Source: Candidatus Saccharimonadota bacterium (lineage in GTDB: Bacteria; Patescibacteriota; Gracilibacteria; BD1-5; UBA6164). From it: 32,000 bases of DNA. This document shows positions 1,616 to 28,294 of the stretch, one piece after another (the stretch's first letter is position 1; every line of letters starts with the position of its first letter). The position numbers and the translations under genes were made by a program. The notes below the pieces were generated by a model that did no database searches, was not told the DNA's origin, and saw only the letters and a list, made by a program, of their open reading frames with translations. The stretch is taken from assembly GCA_004563595.2 (NCBI GenBank), contig CP042461.1, forward strand, positions 1,050,001-1,082,000. Direction: 5' to 3'.

Positions 1616-2632
1616 ATGCAAAACACACATATAAATGAAGATATTTTAAGTGATCTCGAAAACCTAATTGACTCAAATATTGACTCAACACTGGAAAATA
1701 TAAGTAAGATAGATACCCCTTACTCTCCTGAACCCCTTAATAGTTTAAATAAATCAGAAGAAGTAAAATACACTCCTATACTTATAGATTCACAAGACAC
1801 TGAAATAATTCCTGATGAAATAAAAGAAGAGAAAAAATATATAAAAAAATCTTCGAAATTTATTACTTGAATATTATTTCTATTCAAATATATGGCTACA
1901 TCAAGTCTTATATTCGCATTATTACTTGTTACAACAAACTATAGTGCTTATATAAATGTAGCAAAAAGTTATATTTTTCAAGAAGAATTAGAAAATAAAT
2001 CTGCGTGACTTATTAATTCTGTAAAAGCATCAAATATAAAAGAAAAAATTAAAACTGAAGTAGTAGAAAAAAATAGAGCTATCGAAAAAGAAAATACAAC
2101 ACCAGTTGGGAGAAATTCAATAAAAAACTTAGTAGCCCTTTCAAATAAAAATGAACTTGACCTTAACATTGAAATCACACCATATGAAAATAGAATAGTT
2201 ATTCCAAAGATTTGAAAAAATATTCCTCTCTTAGATATTACAAATAGGAAAATATCATGAGAAAATGAACTCAACGATATTTTCATGAAAGAACTTGAAA
2301 ATTGAGTAATTAGATATCCATGAAGTGCTAAACCATGAAAAGATGGGAATGCATTTATTTTTGGTCACTCGTCAAATTTCCCATGGATTAAAGGAGAATA
2401 TAATGATGTTTTTTCACTTCTTGATAAAGTACAATACGAGGATGAAATAATTGTATATTATGGTCAAAAAAAATATACATATAAAATAAGAGAAAAAAAG
2501 GTTATTACTCCTGGTGATATTTCTATTTTAAAAAGAAATAATGATAAATCAGAAATAACTCTTATGACATGTTGGCCAATTTGAACAACCCTCAATAGAC
2601 TTATAGTAACCTGAGAATTAATTGAAGAATAA
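1616..2632 (+). CDS. Sortase-family transpeptidase (membrane anchored)
   Basis: 338 aa with TGA=Gly. N-terminal acidic region and a TM segment (MATSSLIFALLLVTT). Catalytic triad context FIFGHSS, ITLMTCWPIGT (TLxTC) and NRLIVTG. The standard code stops it at 1870. Confidence 0.85.
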
Positions 2633-3893: not shown

Positions 3894-4940
3894 ATGACAG
3901 ACTGAAAAAAAATAAATTTGAGTGCTATGATAAGTTCATCAAATAAAAGTGATACCAAAACCCCCCCTACAGAAACTCCTGTAGAAGAAAAAAAACAGGA
4001 AACACCAAATATTTTATCTGAACAACCAGTTTCAGATAAAATAGAAAAACCTGAGCCAGTTACTGAATCAAAAAAAATAGATATTAAAAGTCTGTCTGCT
4101 TCAGTTTCAAATGAGAAAAAAGATGATGAAACTTCTTCTCAAGATACAACTCAGAAAAATATGATAAAACCTGAAAAAGAAGAAGAAAAAACGTGATTAG
4201 TTACTAAGAAAAAGAAAGTAGATATAAAAAATATCTCTCCTTCTATTTCAAAGACAGAAAAAGAAAATATAGTTCCTGTTCAAGGGGCTCCTAAAAAAGA
4301 GGATATAAAAATTATAGAAAATAAAACAGAAATAAAGGAAGACTCAAAAGAAGTTACAAATCAAGACGATTCTAATAAAACTCTCTTAGAAAATAGTGCT
4401 AATAATGAAGAACTTGAAGAAAAAGCTACAACAAGTGAGATATTTAAAAACTATTCATCTGACTTTAATGGCAAAGCTCAAGGAATTATAAAAGAAATCA
4501 AAAAATTAAAAAACTTAAGAAAAACAAATCCAAAGTTTTTAGGTTTTATAATAATCGTAACTGTTATATGAATATCTTTCCTCTTTTATGTAGATCCTAA
4601 AAATCATTCCTATACAAACTATAAAGCAAGCATCTTAAATGTATATAACAAACAAACAAATCCAAATTATCAAACAAATACTCATAGTTGATCTCAACAA
4701 GAAGAAGATTTAGCAAATAATACTCCAAAAATTAATTGGAATGACCTCTCTATTCATGAATGGTGATTTAATCTAAAGATAGAGAGCCAAACATGAACAG
4801 GATGAACCCTTGTATACAAATTTGAATGAATATTATATACTTCAAAAGAAGACCTAGATCAAGCTGTTGAAGCATCTATTACTTTGCAAAAGACAAGAAG
4901 AATAAAATCTGTAATTTCTGAAAATTTTAAAAGGCAATAA
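3894..4940 (+). CDS. Hypothetical membrane-anchored protein (Lys/Glu/Thr-rich N-terminal region, one TM, ~120-aa C-terminal domain)
   Basis: ATG 3894 is in frame with the track ORF at 3918 via a TGA=Gly codon. It reads through the TGA at 4194 to TAA 4938..4940. TM segment FLGFIIIVTVIGISFLFYV. Alternative starts at 3918 and 3927. A long hairpin terminator follows. Confidence 0.6.
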
Positions 4941-5101: not shown

Positions 5102-6325
5102 ATGGATTTAGACGCTGATATACAAAAACTGCCAATTAAAAAAGACTTATGAGATGTCGTTGACTATATTAATGCTCTCTTTAAAAAAGCTATTGATTAC
5201 GGAGCATCAGATATACATGTAGAACCAACTGAAGATTTTCTCCTTATCAGGTTTCGTAAAGATGGTGATTTTATGATTATTGACAAAGTTCATCCTGAAA
5301 ATATCAGTGCTATAGTAACCAGGCTCAAAGTACTATCAAAGATAAAAATTGATGAAAATAAAAAACCTCAAGATGGGAAAATTGTATATTTCTATGAAGC
5401 TGATGACATGAATGTAGATATCCGTCTCTCTACCCTTCCAACAACCTATGGTGAAAAAGTGGTTATGCGTATATTAAAACAAGATGCCTCACTTACCAAT
5501 ATTGAAGCTCTATGACTTATTGATATCAATGTAGAAAAGGTAAGAGAAGCTCTCAAAAGTAATTATTGAATTATGCTCGTAGCATGACCAACTGGGTCAG
5601 GTAAATCTACTACCCTATTTGGTATATTAAAACATTTTAATCCTCTTGCATATAATATATCCACTCTTGAAGATCCGATCGAGTATAATATTGAGTATGT
5701 AAACCAATCCCAAGTAAAACCTGAAATCTGATATACATTTTCAACTGGTCTCAGAAGTTTGGTAAGACAAGATCCTGATATTATAATGGTATGAGAAATC
5801 AGGGATAAAGAAACAGCAACCCTTGCTGTTGAAGCCGCTCTTACATGACATTTAGTTTTATCAACTATCCATACCAACTCCGCAGCAGGAACTGTGCAAA
5901 GACTTATAAATATGTGAGTTGAACCATTTCTTTTAGCATCAGCTATGAAAATGGTTATATCTCAAAGACTTTGAAAGAGGCTATGTCAAAGCTGTAAAAA
6001 AGAACATCCTCTGAAAGATTATGAAATGAAAAAAGTAAAAGACTTTCTTGCTCCAATTGTAGAAAAAGATCAATTAGAAAACCTCGTCTTTTACAAATGA
6101 GAATGATGTGATGTTTGTAGACAGACATGATATAAATGAAGATTATGAATCCATGAAGTCCTGATAGTATGAGATTTTCTTGAACCTCTCATATTAAATA
6201 AAGAGAGTGCAAATGCAATGAGAACTATCGCAATCGAAAATTGAATGATTACTATAGTCCAAGATGCATTATTTAAAGCACTCATGTGAGAAACTACTGT
6301 TGAAGAAGCTCTTAAACTAATATAA
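5102..6325 (+). CDS. pilB: Type IV pilus assembly / type II secretion ATPase (PilB/GspE family, short form)
   Basis: 407 aa. ASDIHVEP. Walker A VAGPTGSGKSTT (its first G is TGA 5585..5587). LEDPIEY, RQDPDIIMVGEIRD and GHLVLSTIHTN. Tetracysteine region CQSC...CDVC. Confidence 0.9.
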
Positions 6326-6347
6326 AATTAAATAAAAACGTGAAAAT

Positions 6348-8243
6348 ATGTTTAATATATTCAAGAAAAAGAAAATAAATACTCAGGCTGTAAAGAGTTT
6401 TAATGAAGTTGTGAAAACAATTGATATTTTTATTCGTCTTTCAGAGTGGGAAAAAGCAAGAATGGCTTTGGCTGAGATAAGAAATAAAGAAAAAAAATCT
6501 CTTGCAGATCTTATGATAAAGATTGAGAGTGAAGATAAACTTTTCAGTGAAAAAGAAGTTATCAAACAAAATAAATTTTATAAGAAAAAACTGGTCAGTC
6601 TTGATAAATTAGAAGAGACTTTGATTAAAACTGAAAAAAAATTCCATGATGATATTCAAAATCAAAAATTTAAAATCAGATTTAAGTCTATAAAAACTGA
6701 GATCGAGCTCCTAGCATGAGGGAAAAAACATACAGAAGCAATGAATCTCTTACAGAAATTCCTAGAAGAAAATAAAGAAAAAGATATTGTAATTAAATTT
6801 TTCAATAAAGAAAAGAAGATTCTTTTAAAAAAGCTTGAAAAACACAAAGGACTAGAACAAGAAAAAATCAAAAGAAATGCAAAGTCAGAAGCTATGAATC
6901 TGATATGAGAAAATGTAAACATCGAACCAAAAGAGAAAAAAAAGAAAAAAAGTTCATTTTTTAGTGAGCTTAAAGAAAAAATAAATTTTTATAAAAAAAT
7001 AAAAGAGACTATTAGAAAAAAGAAATTACTCAGTGAAATCAATATCCTCATTGACGAAGATTCAAAAGTGAAAAATGATATCGCAGCAAAAAAATTAGCA
7101 AATATACATAGGTGACTCATCAAGGAAATCACAAATGATCAAATGTTATGATATGAACTCTATGGGAAAATACTCTGAGCAGATAAAATATCATGAGACA
7201 CCTTTTGATTTAATGAAAATACATCAAAATATAACTTCTTCTTATGAGATGCCACTGGTCATGGAATTAGAGCATGATTCATAGTTACACTCCTTAGTAG
7301 ATTCTTTAATAAATATGTCGATAAAAGTAGTTTATCTGAGTTGACTTATGAGATTAACAATGGATTAAAGCAAGATTTAAAAAATAGAAATTTTATCACT
7401 TGAGTATTCTTTGAAATACTCAAAAATAAAATCGGAACCATAAATTTTGTTTGAATGTGACATGAGCCAATGCTTATATTTAGGAAGAAAGAAAATACAA
7501 TTGAAAAAGTAATTCCAGGATGACTCGCAGCTTGAATCAGAATGATTAAAAATAAAGAAGATATTAAAACCAAAGAACTCAATCTAGGTGATGAAGATAT
7601 TCTTATTATCTATAGTGATTGAATGACTGATAGCAAAAATCCTGAAGGTTCTTTCTATTGAATTGATAGATTAAAAGATAGCTTTTTCAACATAGCCTCC
7701 GGTGGTTCTGATATTAAAAATATATATGATTTCCTTATTAATGATATCCAATTATTTAGAGGCTGAAGTAGTTTTGATGATGATGTCAGTATTTTAATGA
7801 TAAAAAGAAACTTCCTCAAAGATATTGTAAGAGAACCTTCTGAATATTTAGATGATCTCTCTAAAAAAGAATGACTCAAAAGAAATGATGTCAAAAAGAT
7901 GGAATGAAAAACCAAAGAAGAAATTAATGTCATACTAGAAAGTATTAAAAAAGAAAAAGAAACAAAGAAAATCATAAAAATTCTTGAAAATCTTTATTTT
8001 ACCTGAGAGATTTTAAAATTAAAGCAAGAAGCTATCCGTTTTATCAAAGCCTGATATATTCATAAAAAAATCAATTATTACCTTAAAAAAGCAATTGATA
8101 ATGAAAAAGGTTATAAGATAGATCAAAAAAATCAAAGAATAGATAGTAAATATACCGTTCTTATGGAACTCTATAAAAAATGAGATTATAAAACAGTTAT
8201 GCAAGAAGTTGAAGATATTATTGCACAAGATTGAAATATATAA
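6348..8243 (+). CDS. SpoIIE/PP2C-family Ser/Thr phosphatase domain protein with long coiled-coil flanks
   Basis: 631 aa with TGA=Gly. Central motifs ISGDTFGF, FFLGDATGHGIRAGFI, FVGMGHEPMLIF, LGDEDILIIYSDGMTDSKNPEG and DDDVSILMIK match the SpoIIE/PPM pattern. The N- and C-terminal regions are K/E-rich heptad-like sequence. It sits 22 nt after pilB and 25 nt before pilC. Confidence 0.8.
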
Positions 8244-8268
8244 AAAATTAATTAATAATATTATAATT

Positions 8269-9483
8269 ATGTTCTGAGGTCGTTTCTATGATAAATACTG
8301 AAATTTTAACAACGATAAGTTCGTTAAGCTTTTAGAGAAAGCCAGAAATGCACAATACAAAAAGCAAAAATCAACAAAAGGTAATATGAATAAAGAAATT
8401 ACCTTATTTGATAGCGCCTCAAAAAAAGAACTTTGGCAAATGATTAACAAACTTTCTATATTTATTAATTCGTGAATTGATGTAAAATGAGCTCTTACCA
8501 TCCTCATAAAACAAACAAAAAACCCATACCTTAAAAGAATTACTATTGAAATGCAGGAAAATATTAATCATGGGATTACTATGAGTGAGACTATGGCTCA
8601 ATATCCAAAAGTATTTGACTGATTAAGTACTGCACTTATCTGAGTATGAGAAAAAACAGGGCAATTATGAAAAATTCTTGCAGAGCTTGATAAGAACCTT
8701 TTAGAGAATATTGAGCTCAAATGAAAAGTAAAATGAGCCATGATCTATCCTGCTGTTCTACTAGTATTAACTCTCTGTATGGTAATCTTTATGATGATTT
8801 TTATTGTACCAAGAATTTCAGAGAGTTTTGAAAAAGCTGGGAGTGAGCTTCCAGGTCTCACTCAGTTTGTAGTAGCTGTTTCAAATTTTTTCATTGAAGA
8901 TTGGTGAAAACTTATCATTTGATTTATTGCAACTATTTCAATATTTAGAATCATCAATTCAACATATCACTGAAAAATGTTCTTTGCTATCATGTATACA
9001 AAGCTCCCTATTTTTTGATATGTAGTGAGGCAATCAAATATAGTATATTTTATTAAATCTTTTACCATTCTTCTTGATTCTTGAGTACTTCTATTAGAAT
9101 CACTGAAAACATCAAGTAAAGTAGTACCAAATCTTGCATATAAAAAAGAGCTTATCAGAATCAAAAATGAAGTTGAAATATGACTTACCATATCAAAATC
9201 TCTCTGATTGAACCTTGATTATGAAGCAAATGTATACTTAAATAATCTCTTTCCTGAAGAATTTGCTTATGTAGTAAGTACTTGAGAAGAAACTTGAAGT
9301 TTGTCAGACTCTCTCAAAAAAGTATGAGCAAACTATAACTGAGAACTAAAAAGATATATCTGAAACCTTTCAAGTCTGATGGAACCAGTTATTATCGTTA
9401 TAGTATGATTTTTAGTTGGTACTATTGTAGTTGCCATTATGCTCCCTTTCTTCGCGATGGGTGAAATTGCAAAAAACTTATAA
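8269..9483 (+). CDS. pilC: Type IV pilus platform protein (PilC/GspF family)
   Basis: 404 aa. Two T2SS-F-like halves (…GITMSETMAQYPKVFDGLSTALIGVGEKTGQL… and …EEFAYVVSTGEETGSL…). Three TM segments. Ends TAATAA. Confidence 0.9.
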
Positions 9484-9484
9484 T

Positions 9485-9511
9485 AAAAAACTGGGTTTTC
9501 CCAGTTTTTTT
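9485..9511 (+). terminator. Intrinsic terminator after pilC
   Basis: aaaaactggg-tttt-cccagttttttt. Confidence 0.7.
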
Positions 9512-9618
9512 GTGTATATGGTTTAAATTCATCCCCTTTTGACTATTCTCAAAAATATCCCAATCCTATAAATAATTAGTATTTTTCGCATAAAGTCCAC
9601 TGAAATGCTGCAAAAAAA

Positions 9619-9647
9619 TTGTATTTAAGGTAAAATTAAGGTACACT
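9619..9647 (+). promoter_or_regulatory. Candidate sigma70-like promoter for the pilin gene
   Basis: ttgtat (9619..9624), a 17-nt spacer, then tacact (9642..9647), about 75 nt upstream of the pilin ATG. In AT-rich DNA such matches arise by chance. Confidence 0.25.
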
Positions 9648-9720
9648 CTACAAGTCTTTAATAAAAGGCAACTAATTTTAAAATTTATTTTGTATTTTAT
9701 TTTCTTAACATAACATATTT

Positions 9721-10467
9721 ATGAGAAATACAAAACAAGCATTCACGTTAGTGGAACTTATCGTAGTTATTACTATTTTAGCTATACTTGGTACTATAGC
9801 CTTTATATCTTTACAAGGGTATTCAGCTGATGCTAGAAACTCTAAAAGAGTAAATGACCTTGGGAATCTTGCTGATTCTGTAAACATTAAGTCTACACAA
9901 GGATCATCTCTATTAAGTTTTGTAACTTCTGATACAAACACTACTCTTACTAATGCTAGTGTTGCTGGTACAGGAACTCTTGCTGCTAATTATAGTGCAG
10001 GTTTCCCTAACTATATCGCTCTTGGAGTAAAAGAAGAAGATTTTAAAGATCCAAATGGTCCAGAATATAGAGTTGCTGCAACTACTAATAAAAATGGTCA
10101 ATTTGAATTTGCTTCTTCTATTGAAAATGGTGCAGGACTTGATACTGCTAAAATAATCGGTAACTATAACAATAGAGGTGTAGCTGCTGGTGATACTGCA
10201 ACTATTACTTCTTCTGGTACTCTTTCAGTTACTCTTGCTGATACTGATATCGGTAAGATAGTAAGAGGAGATACTGTTACTGCTGGTGGTACTGCTGCTA
10301 TAGTAGTTACAAAAGTATCATCTGATGGTACAACTCTTACTCTTAACGCTGCTCATGGTGTAGGTACAGGTGTACTATTATCTGCTGCTGAATCAACTAG
10401 TATAATTGCTTCTACAACTGGTGTAACAACTCCAATTGAAGCTGATACTGAAACAGTTCCTTATTAA
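9721..10467 (+). CDS. pilA: Type IV pilin (prepilin with N-terminal methylation/cleavage motif)
   Basis: MRNTKQA-FTLVELIVVITILAILGTIAFISLQGY is the class III signal peptide plus conserved hydrophobic alpha-1 helix with Glu5. Position -1 is Ala rather than Gly. Thr/Gly/Ala-rich globular part. 248 codons with no TGA at all. Confidence 0.9.
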   Translation: MRNTKQAFTLVELIVVITILAILGTIAFISLQGYSADARNSKRVNDLGNLADSVNIKSTQGSSLLSFVTSDTNTTLTNASVAGTGTLAANYSAGFPNYIALGVKEEDFKDPNGPEYRVAATTNKNGQFEFASSIENGAGLDTAKIIGNYNNRGVAAGDTATITSSGTLSVTLADTDIGKIVRGDTVTAGGTAAIVVTKVSSDGTTLTLNAAHGVGTGVLLSAAESTSIIASTTGVTTPIEADTETVPY

Positions 10468-10492
10468 TAAATTTCTCGTAAATTTAAATTAT

Positions 10493-10526
10493 AAAAAGAC
10501 TTTCGCAAGAAAGTCTTTTTATTTTG
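10493..10526 (+). terminator. Intrinsic terminator after pilin
   Basis: aaaaagactttc-gcaa-gaaagtcttttt followed by attttg. Confidence 0.7.
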
Positions 10527-10563
10527 TGTTATTTTTGAAGAGGTCTCACTATCTACCTCATTC

Positions 10564-10602
10564 AAAAAAAAGGTATCACATATATTATGTGGTACCTTTT
10601 TT
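10564..10602 (-). terminator. Intrinsic terminator after pilT
   Basis: aaggtatcacata pairs with tatgtggtacctt (one G:U). There is a T-run on the minus strand, immediately 3' of the pilT stop. Confidence 0.65.
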
Positions 10603-10605
10603 CTT

Positions 10606-11688
10606 CTATGAAATATTTTCCTTAATCAACTTCGGATTGTTTGAGTACTTCAATCATTCCTCTTGAGTAATATATCAACTATTAATAAAATTAATAATAT
10701 CTGTTTCTAATAATTGCATCCCTTCTCTTGATCACGTTTGTATCACTGAAGGAATTTGATGAAGATCATTTTCTCTTATCAAGTTTGAAATCGCTGAATT
10801 TTTTATCAGTATTTCTTTTGCTAACTTTAATCATGTCCCATCTTCTGTCTTCAAAAGTCTTTGAGAAAAAACAGCGACAAGTGAATCTGCAAGTTGTAAT
10901 CTAATCTGATTTTTATCTTCTGCATTAAAACTATCGAGTATACGTGTTACCGTTTGATAAGCAGAACGAGTATGAAGTGTAGAAAATACCAAATGTCATG
11001 TTTCAGCAAGCCTCAGTGCCATCTCCATTTCTTCTTTTGATCTCATCTCTCCAAAAAGAATAACATGAGGGTTTTGTCTCATCGCCCCCATTAGTGCACC
11101 TTCATATGACAGAACATCTCTTCATATTTCTTTGTGCTCAATAATAGACTTTTTATGTTTGTGAATATATTCTATTGGATCTTCAATGGTAATAATATGT
11201 TTACTTGTATTTGCATTGATATGGTCAATCATCGCAGCAAGTGTAGTTGTCTTCCCTGAACCTGTAGGTCCTGTTACCAAGATAAGTCACTGCCCTAATT
11301 TTGTAACATCCTCATATACACTCGTAAGTCATAGATCCTTAGTACTTGGTATTTTTAATGTTAGAAGTCTTAACACCACCATATAATTTCACATTTGAAA
11401 AGAGATATTACACCTTAATCTTCTTTCTCAAAATGAAAAAGAAAAATCTAGATTTCTATCTGTGATAAGCTTTTTATATTGATCTTCTGTGATAAGTGAT
11501 TGCATAAATTCATAGGTGTCTGTAGCTGTTAAAAGCTCAATTCCATCATCTATTTTTACAATATCTCATCCTATTTTTATTGCAGGATAGGTTCCTACTG
11601 TAATATACATATCTGACCCTTCGTTGTCGATCATTACTTGAAGAAGTTGATCTTTGAATATATGATCTGGTTTTAAAATCTCATTCAT
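10606..11688 (-). CDS. pilT: Type IV pilus retraction ATPase (PilT family)
   Basis: 360 aa. GSDMYITVG. Walker [42 protein letters not shown] and [10 protein letters not shown]. Ends with TAG at 10606..10608. Confidence 0.9.
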
Positions 11689-11751
11689 TCTCTCAAAAAA
11701 TTATGGAAATATTCTATTAATATTATTGTATCATATTCTGGATAAAGCCAC

Positions 11752-11786
11752 AAAAAAAACACTGATTTTTATCAGTGTTTTTTTTA
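11752..11786 (-). terminator. Intrinsic terminator after the surface-protein gene
   Basis: aaaaaaaacactgat-tttt-atcagtgtttttttt. Confidence 0.7.
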
Positions 11787-11798
11787 ATCTATATTATT

Positions 11799-12659
11799 TT
11801 ATTTTTGAAACTTTTTTCTCAGAAATATAAATCCAGTTAACAGTGTAGTAAATAGTAATACTATTCCAGTTTCTGTTCCTGTTTGAGGACTTGCAGCTGC
11901 ATTAAGAGCTACTTCTTCTAAGTTTTCAATTTCTTCTGTAGTTTCTTCAGCGTTGAGTAAATCATCATCTGAAAGAAGTGCATCAATTGAGAGTTCTTCT
12001 TCTTGTACTCCTTCTAATGTATCAGATGTTTCAAAATTGTATAAGTCATCATCTAATACAATTTCAGTTCCCATTATATCTTTTAATGAAAGTACAATAA
12101 TCATATAGTTAAAGTTTTTTTCAAACGTTTCAGCAATAGATAATTGTAATTTATTTTCTGCACTATTATATGTCATTGCATCTACTGTAAGTTCACTTAG
12201 AAGTTTAAATTCAAATTCATCTTCAGTAAGTGCTTCAAAGAAAACAACTTCTAATGTCCTTGTATCTTTTACAATAACTTTTACAATACCTTGTTCAGTT
12301 GGAACTATTTCATTCATAATTTCTACATCCTCAAGTGAATCAGTAGTAGTAAAATCTATATTTCCATCAGCTCCAAAGATACTTAATAAGCTATAGTTAT
12401 TCCCTGTTTTTAAATCTTCATTTAATGTAAGGATTACTTTGCTTGCATCATTAAAGTCTTTTGAAGCAAAAGTTATATTAATATCTTTTAAAACTTTCAT
12501 TTCACCTTCTACCGTATCCCCGAGAGTAATATCTTGTGATAATTGAAGATTTATATTTTTAGTATCTGCTACTTCCACTGTATCAATATTTGCTGCATGA
12601 ACAGAAGTGATACATAAAGTAGTAATAAACATAAATAATAGTGTTCTTATATTTTTCAT
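11799..12659 (-). CDS. Secreted surface protein with C-terminal sortase-type sorting signal (SPQTG + TM + basic tail)
   Basis: 286 aa, intact even in the standard code (no TGA). Signal peptide MKNIRTLLFMFITTLCITSVHA. Acidic body. C-terminus ...AASPQTGTETGIVLLFTTLLTGFIFLRKKFQK has the LPXTG-like tripartite layout. Confidence 0.75.
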   Translation of the reverse strand: MKNIRTLLFMFITTLCITSVHAANIDTVEVADTKNINLQLSQDITLGDTVEGEMKVLKDINITFASKDFNDASKVILTLNEDLKTGNNYSLLSIFGADGNIDFTTTDSLEDVEIMNEIVPTEQGIVKVIVKDTRTLEVVFFEALTEDEFEFKLLSELTVDAMTYNSAENKLQLSIAETFEKNFNYMIIVLSLKDIMGTEIVLDDDLYNFETSDTLEGVQEEELSIDALLSDDDLLNAEETTEEIENLEEVALNAAASPQTGTETGIVLLFTTLLTGFIFLRKKFQK

Positions 12660-12752
12660 ATATATGGTAAGTTATGTGTAATAAATAATGTACTTCTATT
12701 ACATCATATTTTTATTTATGAGTCAAATATATTATGCTCCAAAGTATCTTTT

Positions 12753-12819
12753 TGTACTTAAATTCTAATCCATCCCCTTTCACTTCGTTACAGGTACTTC
12801 CTTTGACAAAGGAAGAAAT
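12753..12819. repeat. Solo copy of a ~60-nt intergenic repeat unit (same family as 28107..28260)
   Basis: tgtacttaaattctaatccatcccct...ggtacttcctttgacaaaggaagaaat aligns with both arms of the 28.1-kb palindrome. It contains the hairpin cttccttt/aaaggaag. Confidence 0.5.
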
Positions 12820-12846
12820 TAAGAGTTACCAATAGCTACTTAATTA

Positions 12847-13845
12847 TTAATTCATAACTACTCCGTAAACTCCTTTTACAACTTCTTTCATTTTAGTAAA
12901 ATCAAGTGTATCAATCGTGTCTTCTAGCGTGTGATAATACTTATTTCTCAAAAAAGATGTATCTGTGATCATATATGCTTTATATCATAGGTCCCAATAA
13001 CTTCTATGGTCTGAGAATGATACTCCATGAATGAAATCTGGTGCATTTATCGACCAGACATCAATCTCTGAATTTGCAAGCATGTTATATTTTATATCTT
13101 TTAGGCTCATATCTCATAATTGTCAGATAAGAGCTATAAAATCTCATTTACTCGGGTAGATCCGGCTTAAAAATCTCAATGGATACTTCTGGATTTTTTC
13201 ATCACTAAAATATCAAATCATTTCAAGTGAAATCATATATTGTATATCAATATTCTGGTCTTTTAAAGATTTTGCATGTATATAGCTTCACATATTATTC
13301 CCTGCAAAATAAGGGAGTTCTTCCAATGTATACGCTACAAATTCGATACTATTCTTCAAATTATTTTTATCTTTTCCTACGAGTCTTGTAAGTTCCAAGA
13401 GTCCTGCTACTCATGATGCATTATCATCAGCTCACCTAAAAGTTAAGCCCTCAGGATTTTCATCTAAATATCAACTCCCATCAACATCATAATGTGCTCA
13501 TATAACGATTTTCTGAGGATTTTCTCCATCAAAACTACAAATTACATTTTTATATTCATCTTTTCAGATTGTATATGGTTGATACGTTACTGAATCACAG
13601 CCTGATTCTTGAAAGTGTGTAAATATGTACTGTGCAATTTCATTGAGTCTTTTTGTATTTTTATAATCTCTTTGTTCAACTGTCTCTGTTAAATATGAGA
13701 CATGTTTTTTAAGGTTTTCTTCGCTTATATCTATCTTAATACTACTCTTTGTTACTCATAAGTAGATTGGATTTATGAGTAGATGGAGAATAATAAGGAT
13801 TGTTAGTATAAATGAGGTGTAGATAAGGAGTTTTATTTTTTTCAT
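12847..13845 (-). CDS. M28-family zinc aminopeptidase, N-terminally membrane anchored
   Basis: 332 aa. TM LLIYTSFILTILIILHLLI. Motifs IVIGAHYD, RGADDNASGVAGLLEL and SFSDHRSYW are typical of M28 peptidases. Confidence 0.85.
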
Positions 13846-13925
13846 GGGGATGGTGTGGTTAAGGTTAATTTTATATCAAAAATATTATATGAATAACTTT
13901 CAATTGATGCTTTTTCAAGAAAAGC

Positions 13926-15563
13926 CTACTTATCAGAATCTTTATCTACTAATAAATTTTCCGAAAGTATCTTCAATTCATTTATAAATGAAGGAATAAA
14001 TCAATAATCTTTAAATTTATCCACCATCAAACTTGCTTTTACAGATTTAGATCTAGTTAAAAGATTTACTTCATCTTTCATAGCTTGTAACTCTTCTTTT
14101 TCATTATTTTTTAAAAATTCTTTTTCAATAGTCTCTTCAAAATCTCATTCTAATATTACTAAATTTCCATTACTAATATTCTTATTTTTAAAAAGATTTA
14201 TATTTTCTGTAATATCTGTAATAGGAATATTAAAACATTTAGAAATTAACTCATTAGATTTTTCTTTACCATTTGTGCTATCATTATCAAAAATACAAAT
14301 TACAGGAATTCAAAATTTATGAAATAATCTCCAATATTTTGGAATTTCACCTTTTCCACCTACTCATAAAATTGAAATTCAAAGTGAATTATAGTTAAGT
14401 CATATCGTTTCAAAATATTTGGGAATAGTAATTTCTTCTGTAGATCATTCTCATAATATTATTAATCTACTGAAAAATCATTCAGTTAAACGATAATTTG
14501 ATATCGATTTATAGAAATTTCTCACTTTATCTTCACTATTTCAATGAGGTCATCATGTATTATTTGTAAAATCTAATAGTTCAGAGCATGTTAGCTTACA
14601 AATTTTAGAGTATGTTCTTCATTCATTTTCTTCATCATCAACTTTATAAATTCTTCTAATAGATTCAAAGTTATATATCTCTAAAAAATTTGAATCATGA
14701 GTTGTGTAAATTACCTGTAATCAACGATCTGCAATTTCTTTCAATATTTCAAATAAATGCTTCCTAGCCTGTGGATGTAAATATATTTCAGGCTCTTCTA
14801 TTGCAATAATTCATGATGCTCAACGAAAGTTTTTAGCATAACTTCTTAATAAAGAAATGATTGTTAGATTTTTAGCTCAATCTCATAGTTCTTCAATATC
14901 TATATTATTTCCAACATTAGGGTCACTAGCAAGTATGTTAATTGTCTTAAAATAATTATTTGGAGTGAAAGGCTTAAAATCAATATCTAATTTATAAGGA
15001 GAATCTGATTGCATCTCATTAAAAAAAGATTTAAAATCTCTTTCAAAGTTAGAAAAGCTCTCAACTTCATTAAAAATATCTTTAACACTATCAAAATGAG
15101 TTGCTAGTTTTAATTTTTGCTCATCATTTATTGATTTGTTAAAACTTTTTGAAATTTTTGACATCAAAGACCATTTATTAAATGATGTATCTTTAGATAT
15201 GCTTCTCTCTGCTGATAAGTATGTGCAAGGGAATTCATCTTTTATACTTGTATAAATTTTTCATCAAGAAGAATCACAATATTCTGGCCACTTTTCTCAA
15301 CTATCAAATGTGACATAGCTTCAATTATCAAATACTATTTTTATTAAAATAACTTTTTTTGTATCTCAACAATAATAATCATATTCCTCTAGCCTATCTC
15401 CATTAACCCAACTCTCTCATAGAACTAAATCAATTGCCCTCAAAAAATTTGATTTTCATGCATTATTTGCTCATATTATTGATACAATTCAATTTTCAGG
15501 GAATTCTAAGACTTCATCCTTTATACTTCTAAAATTTTTAATATGTACTTTTTTTATTTTCAT
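13926..15563 (-). CDS. OLD-family nuclease (ABC-type ATPase fused to Toprim domain)
   Basis: 545 aa. N-terminus IKKVHIKNFRSIKDEVLEFPENGIVSIIGANNAGKSNFLRAIDLVLGE, where both Walker A glycines are TGA. LGDGAKNL, Walker B IIAIEEPEIYLHPQ and YTTHDSNFL. C-terminal Toprim IILGEGSTEEI ... GISILGVGGKGEI ... PVICIFDND. Ends with TAG at 13926..13928. Confidence 0.85.
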
Positions 15564-15689
15564 AATAGATTTTTATAAATTACCTATTTACACTCTTCAC
15601 TCACAACGTATTGAATTTCAACCATTTCTTCATTTTATAAAAGTTAATAATTATTTGTTTAATGAAAATTAAGTTAAATACCAAAAGAT

Positions 15690-15730
15690 ATAACAATAAT
15701 ACCATGACTTCGCCTTGGTGTTATTGTTAT
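15690..15730 (-). terminator. Hairpin at the 3' end of the rhs/orphan/immunity unit
   Basis: ataacaataatacca pairs with tggtgttattgttat (one wobble). On the minus strand it is followed by atcttttgg. It overlaps the stop of the immunity gene. Confidence 0.45.
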
Positions 15731-16077
15731 ACAGACATTAGTATTCATAAATATGTTCATCATACAATTCATGATAATATAGCAATAATAAATGAAATTC
15801 TCAAAATATATTTTTTTGTAAATAATGAAACATTATAAAGAAAAACCATTAATAAATAATTATAAATAGTGATAATTATAGCTTTTATTTCATCTACTCA
15901 ACTCGGTAATATTTCAGCTAACCAAAAAGAATTATTAAAATTATAAACAAAAATTAAATTTATATAATTCCATTTATAGCTAGTTGAAAGATCAATTATA
16001 GTAAAAAGTATTGGAATGATACTTAACCATAAAAATCAAAAAATAATTTTACTGTTTAATATATTTTTTTTATTCAT
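15727..16077 (-). CDS. Putative immunity protein for the orphan Rhs toxin cassette (small polytopic membrane protein)
   Basis: 116 aa, ATG 7 nt after the orphan cassette stop. MNKKNILNSKIIFGFLWLSIIPILFTIIDL...FIIAILSGIVGGTYLGILMSV. It has several hydrophobic segments. Its size and position match the gene at 16874..17227. Confidence 0.6.
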
Positions 16078-16083
16078 AATAGT

Positions 16084-16887
16084 TTAGTTATTATTTAAAG
16101 TATTTCACCACTCAAGATAAGTATCTACATCATAATCTTTATGTAATCCAGGGTTTAAAATTGGAGAATAAAAATTATATGTTCATATGTATTTATCATT
16201 CGTCAATTTTTCTGAATTTTTATAAAAAATTATTTCTCTATGTCAATTAGGTGAGACAAATTTTCTCTCTATTCATCATACATTATAATCTTGATGAAAA
16301 AAGGCTCAAAGATATGCCGATCAACGAAATTTAGGTTCCTCCCATAATTCATCTTTAGCATGATCAATAGATGTAGGTAAATTAATATTATATCTATTCC
16401 TATCATAATGTAATTGTTTAGCTATTTTTTCTGCAGGTAATAACTCATCATATGCAATTTTTCTTGTTTCCTGAAGTCTCTGTATTAAATTATTTTTACC
16501 TGTTATCATTGGGTATTTATAAGCTTCTGTAATTTTTTGGTTAATTGACTTAAATATAAGTTTTTTTTCTAAATAATCATCATAAGCTTTCACAAATTCC
16601 TTAGCAGCTAACCCCATTCTATCAACAAACCCAACTGGATTATTCCCAACATACGCATACAAATTCACATCATCACTTATATCTATAGGATCTCTACTTA
16701 TAAATCTCCCCAGTTGTGGATTGTAATATCTTGCTCTGTTGTAGTAGAGCTTGAGTTCTTTTTCATATTCATGATCTGTATACAGTCTTGTGTTTCAAAT
16801 CGCTCATTTTTCATTGTATCTTTTGAAAAAATAAAACCAAGACAGTTCTAATATCTTAGTTTTATTTAGAATATTAAGCTGTAATAT
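16084..16887 (-). CDS. Orphan Rhs C-terminal cassette (core-end fragment + variable toxin domain), no canonical start codon
   Basis: The frame is open from the TAA at 16888..16890 down to TAA 16084..16086. It reads ...IGNTRLYTDHEYEKELKLYYNRARYYNPQLGRFISRDPIDISDDVNLYAYVGNNPVGFVDRMGL followed by a ~174-aa CT domain. The first in-frame ATG is the M of DRMGL, so this is probably a silent or displaced cassette. Confidence 0.7.
16567..16801 (-). repeat. 235-bp direct repeat (Rhs core-end), copy in the orphan cassette
   Basis: Colinear with 17715..17949 at a constant offset of 1148 bp. The central part (…aaccccattctatcaacaaaccc…ctccccagttgtggattgtaatatcttgctctgttgtagta…) is nearly identical. Confidence 0.85.
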
Positions 16888-17227
16888 TTAGAAAGAAGAA
16901 TCAAAATATAGAAGATAATATTCATAAAATGAGAGTATACATATATATATTGTTTACTTTAGCATTTATCATAATTTTAGTATAAATAAAAACTAATATA
17001 AAATTAAATATAAATAAAATAATAATATAGAATATTGTATCTTGAATACTAAATGGTATTGGTAAAAATAGGTTTCATAGAAGTCACCCTAAATATGTTT
17101 TATAAACAAATAATATATCATGATTTTTATATCATTTTTCAAATAAAATTGTACTTATTGAAGCAAGTAATGGTATAAAATTTATTAAACCAAAATTAAT
17201 ACTTGTTTCTTTTATATATTTTCACAT
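16874..17227 (-). CDS. Putative immunity protein for the main Rhs toxin (small polytopic membrane protein)
   Basis: 117 aa, ATG 17 nt after the Rhs stop. MGKYIKETSINFGLINFIPLLASISTILF...IFYIIILFIFNFILVFIY...LILGILSSIFGFFFLNITA*. Its stop (16874..16876) lies within the open orphan-cassette frame, which reaches up to 16887. Confidence 0.6.
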
Positions 17228-17243
17228 AAATTATTAGTTAAAA

Positions 17244-20200
17244 TTAAAATCAGGTTTTTCTTCATAATAATGAAGTATTATCATTATATGAATTTCACCA
17301 TTCATAATAAGGACTTATATCATATTTACTATGTAATATAGGCTCATCCACAGGACTAAAAAAATTATAAGTTCATATATCTTCATCATCAGTTTCTAAA
17401 TACCCTCTGTGAGTATATACAACTTCTTGATGTCAATCAAAAGATACAAACTTTTTATTTGGTACATGCAACGGTGCAGTTTGTTGATGATATAATGCTT
17501 TTCAATAAGATAATTGATTCCATTTATCTTTATCTAAATTTTTTAATTCATATGATTGATTTAAAGTGTTAAAATCATTTCTATTATAATGCAAATCTCT
17601 TGCTAACTTTTGTTTTCTATTAAATTCATTTGTTAATTGTTGCTTTTTATATGAATTCAAAAATAAAAATCAAAGATCTTTACCTCATCAAAAATTATAT
17701 ATTTTTGATTTTATTTCCAAATAATCATCATAAGCCTTCACAAACGCCTTAGCAGCTAACCCCATTCTATCAACAAACCCAACAGGATTCCCTCCAACAT
17801 AAGCATACAAATTCACATCATCACTAATATCAATCGGATCTCTACTTATAAATCTCCCCAGTTGTGGATTGTAATATCTTGCTCTGTTGTAGTAAAGCTT
17901 TAATCCCCTATCATATTCTCTTCCAGTATACAATCTCGTGTTTCAAATCTTGGACTTCTTGAGTCTGGTTATTTTTCCATTCTCTTCTTTTGTATACGGT
18001 TTTCAAAATACATCATATGCGTACTCCTCAACTATACTACCAGTTTCATCTGTGATTGCAATAATACTTCATAGGTGGTCTTTTTGGTAGTAATAGGTAT
18101 TGGTTTCTACGTAACTTTCTTTGATCTTTCTGGTCTTTGCCTTACCATTTGCGTTTATATATTCTTCTTCTATCTTTCTTGTCTTGTAAGCTATTATATT
18201 CATAGAAATGATGTCATCTATTGAGTTTCAATAAATAAACTCTTTTGAATTCTTTAGCTTGTCTTTTTTAGAGTAGTTTTCTTCTCAGATGATGTCTTGG
18301 TTTGAGTAATAGTATTTTCTATAACTTCCGTTATTTAATTTCTTTTCGATTCTTCTTCATAGGACATCATAGCTTATTTCTACTATTCTTTTGATCTGCT
18401 CTATTTCTTCTGTTTCAATATCATTTACCTTTTTGTAGATATTTTTTTCTACTTTAATTAATCTATTTTTGTAATCATAGCTGTAGATGTATTGTCTTTT
18501 ATTATTCAGATTATTTCAAATGAGATTTCCATTATTATCATAGATGAGTCTTCATTCAAGTTCTATTTCTTCTGTTTCTTCGAGGCTTTCCTCAATAGCG
18601 TCTGATTCTTCTTCTATGAATTCTGCTTCTGTAATAATTTCAGTGCTAATTATTTCTATTGTTCCCGTTCCTGTTGGAGTTTCTATTGTGCCTGTACTGG
18701 TTTCTTCTTCTATTTCTTCTATGTCTACATAGATTGATCTATCAAGGTATTGGTTCAGATTATTTGTAGCATAAGCAAATTTCTTTTCTCTTTGAGTTCC
18801 GTTTTTTGTGAGTTTTGTTAGGATTTCTCTGCTTCTGTTTCACATCAAATCATATTCAAAACTTTCTGATGATTTGTTTTTGTGTTTTGTTTGGTAGTTT
18901 GTAGTGGTAATTCTGTCTTGAGTATCATAGCTATATGAATCTACTCCGTTTGAAACGATATTTCATTGAGTGTTGTATGTGTAGTTATAGTTTCAGAGTG
19001 AACTTAATCTTGAGAGAGCATCATAACTGTAATTTGTTACTACTCAATTTCAGAGTGTTTTACTGAGTTGTGTGAAACTATCATATGTATAGTTTGCTAT
19101 ATTTTGGTCATTTCTTGTAATACTTGTTCATCTGTTTGCTCCATCATATGTATAGTTTGTAGATATGGCTTCTACTCCCTCTCCTGCAGGAGAGGGTTGG
19201 GGTGAGGTTATACTTGTTCTATTTCATGAAATGTCATGTGTATATGTTATCGTTTTATCTGAATTTGTTTCATTTACGAGTCTTCATAAACTATCATATT
19301 CAAATCATAGATCATTTCACTCATTATCAGTGGCACTTATGAGTCTTCATAATGCATCGTATTCATATATTTCACTGGTTACTCATCATACTCATACTCA
19401 TGTTTGAATATCTCTTTGTTTGAGTCTGTTGAGTCTATCATAATTGTTTACAACAACGGTTCCATTTGGATCTGTTGTTTTGTTGAGGTTTCATGATATA
19501 TCATATTCATATCTCATTACTTGTTGATCTGGATATGTGATTGTAACAAGTTGTCAGAGGTCATTATAATCATAGAGAGTAATATTGTCATTTGCATCTG
19601 TTACTTTTTCAAGATTTCAATTGATATCATAACTATAATTTATTGTTCTTCATTCATGAGATTCTGATAATATATTTCAACTATAATCATATGTATAATG
19701 GGTTATTCATCCATCTTTATCAGTTTTTGTGATAACTTGATTGAGTTTATTATATGCATAGCCCTCAAAATCTCCATTATTATCTATTTCTTTTATGAGC
19801 CTTGAATCTGTATCATATTCATAACTCGTTCCTATAGTCTTCCCTGTTGTTCAAACTATTTTTTTCTCTGTTATTTTATCATTTTTATTATAACTGTGGG
19901 TGATAATATTACCGAGTGTATCTGTAGCTGTTGTTAGTCTATTGAGAGTATCATAACCGTACAGTGTAGAGTTCCCTTTTGGGTCTACTGTTTCTATAAT
20001 ATTTCATATGGCATCATATTTTGTTTTTGTTGTTATTGTTTCATTTATGGCTAAGAGTATTTTTTTATTTTCAATCACTCTTCATAATATATCAAATGTG
20101 TTTTGCTCTTTTAATACTAAAGTATTATTTCCATCAGAAACTCGTGCTTCTGTTATTCCTCATAATGCATCATACTCTAACTGAGTAGTTGTAAAGTGTG

Positions 20201-23200
20201 GATCTATTTGTTTCTCGATCCTATCAAAGAGATCATATTCAAATTTTGTCTGCGTCTCGTTTGGATGAATTTGAGTGATGAGTCTATTATTTATGTCATA
20301 GACATATTTTGTAATGATATTTTGATTGATTCCTGCCTCCGTAGGAATGACTGTTTTTTTAATAATAAATCATGCTTCATTATATTCAAACTTCTGAGTG
20401 GCATTATTTCCATCAGTTATTTCGGTAATATTTGAATTTTTATCATACTGAGTCACTGTTATTTTTTGCCTACTTGCATCTATGTCTGTTGTGATTTTTG
20501 TAGGATTATCTAAAATGTCATATTCATAACTACTGTCTATAGTTTCAGTTCCTGATAATATTATTTTCTCGTTTGTCTTTTTATTCAGTTTATTATATAC
20601 ATATTCACTTACGATTCCCTCTGGAGTGGTAAGCTTTTTAAGCATATTAAAATCATCATAACTGAGATTTGAAATATTTCATTCTGCATCTGTTATACTG
20701 GTAATATTTCACTTATTGTCATAGCTATAGTTTGTAGCTATTTCCTCTCATGAAAGAGACTTAACAGTTTTTAATAAATTTCCATTCTGATACTCAAAAC
20801 TTGTTTCGGATCCATTTCCATCAATCTTTTTTATAAGTTCTCAGAGTGTGTTGTATTCAAACTCTTCTATAACTATTATAGTATTTCCATCATAATCTTG
20901 CACTCAAAGTACTTCTGTTTTTGTGATGTTTCCATTACTATCGAGTTCAAAGTTTGTAACTCTTCCATTTGGAGCAATAGCTTGAGTTATTTTATTAAAG
21001 ACGGGGTGGTAGGTATAGCTATATACTATATCTTCTGCTGAGTCAGCTGACTGAACATCTTGTTTCATTCTCTTTTCTATGAGGTTTGATCTCGTATCAT
21101 AGTCATATGTATATCCATTTCAAAGTGGTAAGATTTCTTTTGATATATAGTTATTATTATCATATTCATAAGTGTATATACTGTCTCAAGTATATTTTTT
21201 CACTATCTTCCCAATGGTATTTCAGTTTGAATCATATGTATAGATGACATTGTTTCCTTCCCTATCTAAGACACTGTTTTGAGTTATTTGATTCTCTGCA
21301 TCAAGAGTATAGGTATATCAAATAGTTCCTTCTCAAAACTTTTGTGTTGCAACTCTATCATCTCCATTATATGTATTTTCTACATAGATGTTATTTTCTG
21401 AATCTATAAGTTGTAGTATATTATGAGACGATTCAAAAGTATCTCACATCGTATATGTGAAACTAATTTCTTTTGAGCTTATAGTATTCGTAGTTGTAAT
21501 AGTTTTTAAATCAAATTCATCTCCATCAGTTTCTCCTGTTCAGAAATATATAAACTCAACGGTATCTCCGTTAAAATCAGTTATATCTTTGATTCTCGAA
21601 TGACCATAATATGTCAGATTATATACTCTCGAGTTTGTATCTATTATTTGCGTTAATGCATTGTTTGCATCATACATAAAACTCATAGTATTTGAGAAAT
21701 TATCTGTGATACTTTGTAGTCTTAGGTTATTATTAAAACTGAGAGTTGTAGTGTTATTTAAGTTCACAGAGTATGTTCCATTTGCTAAGCTGAGGGTTCA
21801 TTTAAGAGTCTCATTTCCTAAAAATCAAGTTCATGATTTTATAAATTGGAATACTCCAAGCTTCCCATTGTGGTAGTTTATATTTCCATCATTGTCTTCA
21901 ACTAAAAATTGATTGTAATTATAATCAAAATTATTTCAGAGGGGTCCGTTATAATAGGATTGATTTTGGTAGTTTATTTTAAACTCAAATGGAAATCAAA
22001 CAGACTTGTATTGCATAAGAGTGTTATCATATACAAATTCTCATGTGTTGAGGTTTACAGGATCTCATGCTGTTGCTTCTGTATTTATTTCTTGGGATAC
22101 TGTGTTATTCGTACTCTGAGTACTTGTTTCTTGGATCGGTCAGATAAAAATCTCTTCTCATGATGGAATGTTATTCTGAACGAAAATATTTCCATTATTT
22201 TCTACATAATTAGAGTATGAAAAATCTGGAGTAAAATTCTCATTTATTACATTCACTTGATAAGTAGTCGTAGCATCTGATAGATTTCCATCTGCATAGA
22301 CTCATCTTACATACCAGTTATATGTTCCTGTAGGAAGTGAAGCTATTTCAAGTTCATAATAACGCTCTACTACTTGTATAGCACTATCATCCTTAAGATA
22401 GAAATTATATGATACGGCATTTTCTATGCTATCCCAAATAAGGTAGGTATATCATTGTTTGTAATCTATGTTTAAAACATCTCATCATGTGCTTACTTGT
22501 TCCACTTGTTGTACTATTTCTTCGATAACCGTAGCATCAACATTTTCGATAGTTTGATCTACTATTACATCTCAGCTAATAGTTGTTGTTGTGATATCTA
22601 TTTCATAGTTTGATGAAATAATCACGATGTCTGCTTGTATATTTCCAGATACTGTTTGCGTAATTACAGCAGGTCAACCACCACCCGTATTACTTGGTGT
22701 ACTCGGAGCTAAGTTCACTGTTTTTACAACTACTTTATTTACTGTAGTATCTCCTATTGTTTGTGTCGTAATACTTTGCGTTACTTCTAGATTTTCTATT
22801 TCAATTACTATTGGTGCTGTATCCTGAGTAATCGTTTTAATAGTAATACTTTCTCAGCTTCATTCTCAATTTGAGGATACTATTGCTCCATGTCAGCTAA
22901 TTCATCAAAGAGATATTTGTTTTGTTCCATCTACATATAATGTATACCCGTTTAAATAAATAACTCCATCATAAACAAAGTCTCCATCTATAGTAATGTT
23001 ACTTTGTAAGTTCATGTCTGATGATATTGGTGTCGATCAATTGATAGTTCTCGCTTGGGTACCATTTACATATAACTGAGTAACATCAAAGCTTCAATTA
23101 TTTTCTATATTTCATTTTGCTGTTATTTTTGAAGTTCATCCTGATGAAGTGAGTATAGTTCAATTATTTACTACATTCCCTTCTACTGTTATATTTGCCC

Positions 23201-26933: not shown

Positions 26934-27071
26934 AGATACAAAAATTTAGAAAAATAAAGCCGATTAGCACAATAATCTCCATTAGTATACTCACATGATA
27001 TTAACAGGACATTAATTTTTAAATAAAAAACTTTTTTCTTCTTTACAATTCTTCAAAACATCATATCAAAC

Positions 27072-28103: not shown

Positions 28104-28106
28104 AAA

Positions 28107-28260: not shown

Positions 28261-28294
28261 AAAAAAGAATACATTATAATGTATTCTTTTTTTT
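28260..28294. terminator. Bidirectional hairpin terminator (antiporter / ruvX)
   Basis: aaaaaaagaatacat-tataa-tgtattctttttttt. It overlaps the last codons of ruvX. Confidence 0.6.

Follow-up and report, generated by a model that had tools for sequence, protein, structure and literature searches.

Introduction

SpoIIE works anchored to a machine of the cell envelope, the division septum, and couples completion of the septum to activation of sigma-F. In the H1 type VI secretion system (T6SS) of Pseudomonas aeruginosa, PppA, a small stand-alone PP2C encoded together with the kinase PpkA and an FHA substrate, controls assembly of the apparatus post-translationally. Here we describe a gene for a phosphatase of the SpoIIE type that lies inside a type IV pilus operon. 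It occupies 6348..8243 on the + strand of a 32,000-nucleotide (nt) stretch of contig CP042461.1 from a member of the Gracilibacteria (the whole stretch is called the window below), between pilB, coding for the extension ATPase, and pilC, coding for the platform protein. The reading that we prefer, with a probability of roughly 0.55, is that its product is a dedicated regulatory phosphatase subunit of the Gracilibacteria type IV pilus machine that gates pilus dynamics.

The catalytic domain of the protein is an ordinary member of family PF07228. It has the same catalytic domain, four aspartates, D-x-x-G-H-G motif and fold as the phosphatases of the RsbU, RsbP and SpoIIE type, and its layout, an N-terminal regulatory domain followed by a conserved helix and the PPM core, is also that of these enzymes, including the forms linked to HAMP or PAS domains. 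What is not ordinary is a conserved helical domain after the core, whereas the nearest relatives end with the core. The strict placement of the gene between motor and platform genes and the fusion of the phosphatase to PilC in a sister lineage are further differences from the RsbU/SpoIIE type, as is the lack of a STAS or kinase gene nearby. As a machine-anchored phosphatase, SpoIIE may be regarded as the closest conceptual analogue. The closest functional analogue is the PpkA/PppA/Fha1 system, in which a PP2C-family phosphatase is likewise encoded in the gene cluster of a nanomachine. However, the T6SS is not a type IV pilus, the cluster described here includes neither a kinase nor an FHA gene, and its phosphatase has large helical flanks and a possible fusion to the platform protein.

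The archaellum network of Sulfolobus is archaeal, acts mainly on transcription through FHA/vWA regulators and uses other phosphatase families. Phosphorylation on Ser/Thr also governs this member of the type IV filament superfamily (PMC4307647), but the ArnA/B network is neither encoded between nor fused to the motor and platform genes. Among the known controls of PilB, the N1D/MshEN domain, PilZ-FimX and PilM/N/O occupy the same niche, being cytoplasmic factors of the PilB/PilC interface that decide when a pilus is built; N1D is typical of assembly ATPases and receives c-di-GMP and other inputs in other bacteria (PMC11656802). None of them is a phosphatase, however, and here PilB has no N1D and the window has no PilM/N/O or PilZ. 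The words "phosphatase" and "PP2C" do not occur in this 2024 review of PilB cofactors (PMC11656802), and no description of a PilB-PPM-PilC arrangement was found in searches of the literature on Gracilibacteria, Absconditabacteria and pilus regulation. This agrees with an earlier note on this DNA, made from the sequence alone, which knew of no canonical type IV pilus operon with a PP2C phosphatase at this position.

A SpoIIE/PPM phosphatase between pilB and pilC

Open reading frames (ORFs) were called over the whole window under code 25, in which TGA specifies glycine. The interval 6348..8243 (+) is then a single ORF of 631 amino acids (aa) with 23 in-frame TGA codons and one terminal TAA; read with table 11 it is interrupted by stops, and every one of the 23 internal stops is a TGA. 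The earlier note had the coordinates of this protein exactly right, and the five motifs that it quoted from the core (GDTFGF, GDATGHGIRAG, GMGHEP, YSDGMTD and DDDVSIL) are all present as written. A read-through or frameshift fusion of the phosphatase with PilC in the window itself was considered and ruled out: PilC lies in another frame, and the TAA and 25 nt stand between them.

The public translations of many homologues have tryptophan where the window protein has glycine (for example WDATGHGIRAW). These records evidently stem from gene calling with code 4 where code 25 was needed. Such gene calls artificially lower the apparent conservation of glycine, and motif searches may be misled by them.

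The gene is preceded by pilB (5102..6325, +), which codes for a PilB extension ATPase of 407 aa (PF00437 T2SSE, E=2e-117), and followed by pilC (8269..9483, +), which codes for a PilC/GspF platform protein of 404 aa with two PF00482 T2SSF domains (E=1.7e-47) and matches to TIGR02120 and to the PilC models of NCBIfam. The gaps are 22 nt between pilB and the phosphatase gene and 25 nt between the latter and pilC. The sole terminator-like site within 5830-11752 is a bidirectional hairpin at 10491..10522 with a 14-bp stem and T-runs on both strands, which lies between the downstream pilin gene and the convergent pilT and closes both units. With such short gaps and no terminator-like site before 10491, joint transcription of pilB, the phosphatase gene and pilC is very probable, as had been proposed. 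In this AT-rich DNA a promoter scan told little, with 57 sites found versus 46±8 expected.

The assignment to the SpoIIE/PPM family, which the earlier note had made from motifs and had proposed to check by a profile search, was borne out at several levels. Pfam SpoIIE (PF07228) matched aa 294-487 over nearly the full model (positions 4-191/192) with E=3.5e-32 and 112.3 bits, far above the cut-off of 25. The PPM catalytic core extends over 7119..7808 (+; aa 258-487), as supported by the SpoIIE alignment, the invariant aspartates and Foldseek. In a phmmer search of the PDB sequences, aa 277-486 aligned with the phosphatase domain of Bacillus subtilis SpoIIE (5MQH, 3T91). The metal ligands D284 (nt 7197-7199), D301 (7248-7250), D424 (7617-7619) and D478/D479 (7779-7784), all on the + strand, are in register with the SpoIIE motifs SGD, SDGMGNG (SDGxGxG), SDG and EDD, respectively. 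The D-x-x-G-H-G motif is present as well. The four metal-binding aspartates are invariant in a family alignment of 64 sequences and are also kept in the most divergent split forms and in all the PilC fusions described below, which share only ~25-32% identity with the window protein. The AlphaFold2 model of the 631-aa protein has a mean predicted local distance difference test score (pLDDT) of 76, and its core, a PP2C fold, scores mostly ~85-94, with a few blocks at 61-73. Foldseek matched this model with probability 1.0 to the PP2C domain of RssB (the best match), SpoIIE, the RsbU domain of Rv1364c, RsbX and SiaA (E=1e-10 to 1e-7), and the T6SS regulator PppA (6JKV) was also among the matches. 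The nearest relatives of the core outside the Candidate Phyla Radiation (CPR) are HAMP-SpoIIE and PAS-SpoIIE sensor-output phosphatases. By these matches the 631-aa protein is a SpoIIE/PPM family phosphatase with intact metal ligands, probably a Ser/Thr phosphatase that depends on Mn/Mg and is catalytically active.

The PP2C domain of E. coli RssB, which heads the Foldseek list, raises a different view of the protein, namely that its PP2C fold serves for binding, as in RssB, and that the whole is a structural scaffold, an architectural stand-in for PilM/N/O or for the missing N1D of PilB. The lack of a PilM/N/O gene in the window would suit such a role. However, all four aspartates, like the D-x-x-G-H-G motif, persist in lineages that share only ~25-30% identity, and pseudo-enzymes usually lose such residues. 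The helical flanks of the core, which also bear on this view, are treated below.

Conserved position in relatives

A search of 5.8 billion proteins with the window phosphatase returned 252 relatives. Among the best 120 of these, almost all are full length (~630 aa) with 49-62% identity, and the named relatives among the 252 are PP2C, SpoIIE or RsbU proteins of Candidatus Gracilibacteria. Gene context was sampled in three distant members, 16 species-representative genomes, two very divergent recoded contigs and four metagenome loci anchored on PilC, where the neighbours were called under code 25 and compared with the window proteins by BLASTP. A pattern scan of contigs, which is blind to glycine encoded as TGA and is therefore an under-count, found at least 16 full-length loci.

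In every one of the ~23 distinct loci the phosphatase gene was directly upstream of pilC on the same strand, and wherever the contig extends far enough it was directly downstream of a gene for a PilB of 403-420 aa (including loci L001-L019, L089 and L090). The order PilB-PPM-PilC holds down to a phosphatase identity of ~36%. It does not depend on the phosphatase as query, for a search anchored on PilC found PPM upstream in 4/4 metagenome loci. The usual order of the region is pilin, upstream membrane protein, PilB, PPM, PilC, pilin, PilT, secreted protein, RuvX, L9, NusA and FtsZ. Within L001-L019 the identity to the window proteins is 43-60% for the phosphatase, 63-81% for PilB and 61-79% for PilC, so that by sequence the phosphatase evolves faster than its two neighbours. 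The synteny survey suggested by the earlier note thus found the gene in all of the relatives' pil clusters examined, and on this comparison the gene is not an incidental insertion.

Two of the more distant loci carry additional genes between PilC and PilT or after PilC. In L087 these code for family-less proteins of 534 aa and 207 aa (11205-12809 and 13932-14555), and in L090 (3629-7641) for family-less proteins of 437 aa, 630 aa (with a faint NHL match) and 263 aa. They may be further lineage-specific components of the pilus.

Fusion to PilC in a sister lineage

Among 1.84 billion cluster representatives, a profile search turned up proteins of ~1020-1125 aa that matched the query beyond its core. 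According to Pfam they contain SpoIIE followed by T2SSF in one polypeptide, that is, the phosphatase fused to PilC. By BLAST against the window proteins there are at least 12 mutually divergent representatives of these standard-code fusions, 1026-1125 aa long, with 25-32% identity in the PPM part and 29-42% in the PilC part. In addition, a second search of a large database showed that eight full-length fusions, the query among them, make up a coherent family; they are 1059-1125 aa long and 42-44% identical to the query. Their sources are NCBI, JGI, ENA and Logan assemblies that are independent of one another; the NCBI label is Candidatus Peregrinibacteria, and one of them bears the automatic JGI name "PulF/RsbU". 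The DNA of four standard-code loci (L084-L087) was checked, and the fusion ORF translates exactly as recorded. In each of these a PilB of 394-420 aa is encoded directly upstream of the fusion, and L087 also has PilT and a pilin downstream.

A further fusion, P0147, runs end to end on a recoded contig (L088) as a clean code-25 ORF with 52 TGA codons and one TAA. It is a singleton, its closest relative is a split form, and we give it little weight.

In the NCBI taxonomy the Gracilibacteria (Ca. Altimarinota) and the Peregrinibacteria are separate candidate phyla. GTDB puts both into one class. In the PilC/GspF topology the N-terminus of PilC is in the cytoplasm, so that a phosphatase fused to it comes to lie on the cytoplasmic side of the platform, which is also the side that PilB and PilT engage. 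The fusion in this sister lineage makes for a firmer functional link to the pilus than the earlier note could have known.

The position and the fusion also bear on the simplest alternative, a general-purpose Ser/Thr phosphatase whose gene happens to be transcribed along with pilB and pilC and which plays no specific part in the pilus. Its generic database names (PP2C, SpoIIE, RsbU) and the lack of a known pilus-specific substrate are in keeping with such a hitch-hiker, and in small genomes unrelated genes often end up in one operon. However, in all loci examined the gene holds exactly this position between PilB and PilC, at ~36-62% identity, the in-frame fusion to PilC recurs in the divergent sister-lineage representatives, and the C-terminal domain, described in the next section, is family-specific and highly conserved. 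We therefore consider a passenger gene very improbable.

Flanking domains of the phosphatase

The core is preceded by three regions and followed by one. The first is an N-terminal helical domain (6393..6899, +; aa 16-184), seen in the AlphaFold2 model and in the identity profile, with predicted helices at residues 18-30, 34-61, 67-124, 128-141 and 146-184 and a pLDDT of ~75-88; it is variable and may be an input domain. A K-rich linker (6900..6983, +; aa 185-212; 29% K) follows and appears disordered, with a pLDDT of <50. The third region is a conserved long helix that leads into the core (6984..7118, +; aa 213-257), seen in the identity profile, in the model, where it covers residues 213-254 at low pLDDT, and in the alignments with the fusions, which begin at about residue 200-250 of the window protein. 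By analogy with sensor-linked SpoIIE/RsbU phosphatases it is a putative signalling or dimerisation helix. After the core and a connector comes the C-terminal helical domain (7914..8240, +; aa 523-631), which ends in K/Q-D-G-N-I; its pLDDT is 85-90 within the full model and 82 in a model of the domain by itself.

Mean pairwise identity is 46% in the N-terminal domain, 38% in the K-rich linker and 66% in the pre-core helix, and it reaches 69% in the C-terminal domain, the highest of all regions, versus 62% in the catalytic core. In terms of sequence identity, then, the C-terminal domain and the pre-core helix are more constrained than the enzyme core, unlike a generic spacer. The N-terminal extensions of the relatives range from 150 to 590 aa, one of them with weak, sub-threshold TPR matches, which fits a variable input end.

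The flanks had been described in the earlier note as K/E-rich coiled coil. The composition and the helicity stood: K makes up 19-29% and E 7-18% of the residues, and the flanks are almost wholly helical. The coiled coil was borne out only in part: hydrophobic occupancy of the heptad a/d positions in the best register is 0.45-0.62, versus 0.29-0.40 elsewhere, a weak periodicity, and the predicted flank helices, 28-58 residues long, are modelled as hairpins or bundles within conserved helical domains, which the disordered K-rich linker joins. Searches of the flanks against Pfam and NCBIfam gave nothing significant even at E<=5, apart from a sub-threshold TPR_6 match at aa 124-141. A profile of the C-terminal domain reached at best E 0.33 against the PDB sequences, Foldseek with the whole model returned PP2C matches only and none for the flanks, and with the C-terminal domain alone its best E was 1.5, for vague TPR, 14-3-3 or Fis1-like hairpins.

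These results bear on the proposal that the flanks form a scaffold replacing the missing PilM/N/O. The flanks are large and conserved, and the fusion to PilC would be compatible with a structural role. However, neither sequence nor fold similarity to PilM, PilN, PilO or GspL was detected for them, and their heptad periodicity is weak, which leaves the proposal unsupported. With the conserved active site also speaking for an enzyme, a mainly architectural function appears unlikely to us.

A profile hidden Markov model (HMM) built from aa 523-631 matched every split form end to end (E=1e-18 to 1e-36). The same model matched the fusion P0147 at aa 620-726, immediately before its PilC moiety. Some BLAST and HMM alignments extend to ~614-624 in P0178, P0179, P0230 and P0237 as well, which we attribute to the bias of K/E-rich helices. 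Homology of the Gracilibacteria flanks to the connector or the N-terminus of the main Peregrinibacteria fusion was tried as a candidate and rejected, the hhalign probability being <1% and the C-domain HMM giving no match.

On the side of PilC, a short N-terminal peptide (8281..8307, +; aa 5-13, R-F-Y-D-K-Y-G-N-F) follows the consensus F-[YF]-D-x-x-G-N-F. This motif lies upstream of the start of most canonical PilC/GspF profile alignments (~residue 36-46), is kept in 20/20 PilCs of the split lineages and is missing at the fusion junction of P0147. As a speculation from these sequences, it may be a docking peptide. We infer that the C-terminal domain of the phosphatase is a non-covalent module for docking to PilC in the split lineages, perhaps by way of this N-terminal peptide.

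A proposed regulatory subunit of the pilus machine and its possible partners

The preferred reading, a dedicated regulatory phosphatase subunit of the pilus machine, suggests the following mechanism. The phosphatase would be translated from one transcript with PilB and PilC and be seated at the cytoplasmic face of PilC, in Gracilibacteria as a separate polypeptide with its C-terminal helical domain, and in the Peregrinibacteria-type relatives through the covalent fusion of the core to the cytoplasmic N-terminus of PilC. The N-terminal domain and the pre-core helix would control its activity, given the likeness in layout to sensor-linked RsbU/SpoIIE enzymes. As substrate we infer a component of the motor/platform interface, with PilB, PilT, PilC and the upstream membrane protein as candidates, and its dephosphorylation would gate extension versus retraction of the pilus. 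PilB of the window aligns to TIGR02538 only at model positions 174-560/564 and is without the N-terminal GSPII/N1D domain; the same short PilB, of 394-420 aa without GSPII/N1D, was found in all the loci of Gracilibacteria and in the Peregrinibacteria fusion loci examined. The phosphatase may thus supply the post-translational control that is exerted elsewhere through the N1D of PilB and c-di-GMP.

Several observations weigh against this mechanism. The arrangement is not universal in the wider group, since one pilB-pilC pair is reported to be contiguous in JAEDAM01, formerly placed within Gracilibacteria (PMC11393006). In the supplements of a Gracilibacteria metaproteome paper, RsbU, SpoIIE and PP2C were not found. 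The putative docking domain has no detectable homologue in the main fusion family: the HMM of aa 523-631 gave no match with the standard-code fusions, the only fusion with the C-terminal domain being the singleton P0147. The partners of the enzyme are another such point. Pfam scans of every other ORF in the window bore out the statement of the earlier note that it holds no kinase or STAS partner. STAS domains (PF01740, PF13466) and GHKL anti-sigma-type kinases (PF13581, PF02518) were absent from the window ORFs and from the called flank genes of L001-L003 and L084-L090, and no Hanks-type Pkinase or FHA domain was found in the window or the examined flanks. With no phospho-substrate, kinase, FHA or STAS gene in the window or in the examined ±6-8 kb of ~28 loci, the phospho-relay is incomplete. 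Lastly, the SpoIIE-family phosphatases whose substrates are known mostly act on STAS-type proteins and not on subunits of machines, which for the substrate step favours a rival explanation.

In this rival, the phosphatase is docked on PilC, which serves as anchor and sensor, and acts on a soluble STAS-type protein, similar to RsbV or SpoIIAA, or on some other protein, encoded elsewhere in the ~1.3-Mb genome. The state of the pilus (host contact, tension or retraction) would turn the phosphatase on, and the signal would pass by partner switching to gene expression or another process. The PF07228 core points in this direction, with SpoIIE, the RsbU domain and RsbX, which act on STAS-type substrates, among its fold neighbours, and all-in-one proteins with STAS, GHKL kinase and SpoIIE domains occur among the relatives listed. 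The order of input domain, conserved helix and core is also that of regulated enzymes of the RsbU/SpoIIE type, and the evidence for localisation at PilC from fusion and synteny fits equally well. However, STAS, GHKL kinase and sigma or anti-sigma genes were not found in the window or the examined flanks. We regard partner switching as the main rival, but as less probable than the preferred reading.

The dedicated pilus subunit that we prefer could also work as a sensor. A phosphatase bound or fused to PilC might read the mechanical or occupancy state of motor and platform, for instance upon host contact or retraction, and convert it into a dephosphorylation signal, so that the pilus would serve as a contact sensor with Ser/Thr phosphorylation as its output. 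This would replace the c-di-GMP/N1D and Pil-Chp routes of other bacteria, and the coupling of the septum to sigma-F by SpoIIE offers an analogue. The idea is doubtful, but a phosphatase that did report the state of the pilus to the cell would represent a new way of sensing surfaces or host contact.

Type IV pili are indispensable to a cultured Saccharibacterium for adhering to its host (Xie et al. 2022, as cited in PMC11452946), and the pili of Gracilibacteria and Absconditabacteria are presumed to act in attachment and DNA uptake. The phosphatase is a concrete candidate for the control of pilus extension and retraction in such minimal cells, whose PilB is without the usual N1D, and regulation of type IV pili of this kind is absent from the current review literature. 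In addition, the natural fusions are a ready-made construct for structural work on a complex of PilC with its regulator, and the catalytic aspartates, the C-terminal domain and the N-terminal motif of PilC are targets for mutagenesis.

Other genes of the pilus cluster and of the window

The cluster of the window holds an extension ATPase, a platform protein, a pilin with an N_methyl motif and a retraction ATPase of the PilT family, a machinery like that of type IVa pili. The pilin gene (9721..10467, +) codes for 248 aa with PF07963 N_methyl at aa 3-28, and a pilin stands at the position after PilC in most related loci. On the opposite strand, PilT (10606..11688, -; 360 aa) matches TIGR01420 pilT_fam with 401 bits (cut-off 319) and is syntenic in relatives. 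No window ORF matched PilM, PilN, PilO or the A24 peptidase (PilD), even with permissive E-value limits, and these proteins may be encoded elsewhere in the genome; Pfam scans of the window ORFs detected no PilZ gene.

Upstream of pilB lies a gene that we call UpsX (3894..4940, +; 348 aa). Its product consists of ~210 aa of S/T/K/E-rich low-complexity sequence at the N-terminus, one transmembrane helix at about aa 215-235 and a C-terminal domain of ~110 aa, and it matched no family of Pfam or NCBIfam. BLASTP found homologues in the same place upstream of PilB in L002, L004-L006, L008, L009, L012, L091 and L094. UpsX may be a component of the pilus machine, perhaps a PilN/O-like one, or a substrate of phosphorylation.

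Next to PilT is the gene of a secreted protein of 286 aa (11799-12659, -), which ends in SPQTG, a hydrophobic stretch and RKKFQK, resembling a sortase sorting signal; in most relatives it accompanies the pil cluster at a syntenic position. The window also codes for a sortase-domain protein (PF04203, E=6.5e-24), at 1616-2632 (+).

In L001, L007, L010, L014 and L015, RuvX directly follows the secreted protein downstream of PilT, and in the window ~15.6 kb lie between the two (12660-28273). This interval contains an M28 peptidase (12847-13845), an OLD-family nuclease with AAA_15 and TOPRIM domains (13926-15563), an RHS-like locus and a Na/Ca exchanger (27072-28103), and it appears to be a variable island with genes for defence and competition. 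The RHS-like locus is dominated by a giant protein of 3229 aa (17244-26933, -), with an RHS-core-like motif, YNPQLGRFISRDPIDISDDVNLYAYVGGNPVGFVDRMGLAAKAFVKAYDDYLE, near its end and then a C-terminal tip of ~190 aa. A downstream ORF of 177 aa (16084-16617, -) opens with MGLAAKEFVKAYDDYLE, which repeats the junction of the 3229-aa protein, and appears to be an orphaned alternative tip for the toxin of a polymorphic toxin locus. The ORFs of this locus had no matches in the Pfam scan. Beside the toxin genes, two small ORFs with several transmembrane segments (16874-17227, - and 15727-16077, -) are candidate immunity genes. Near the left end of the window, a 79-aa ORF (267-506, -) contains a GIY-YIG nuclease domain (PF01541, E=1e-19).

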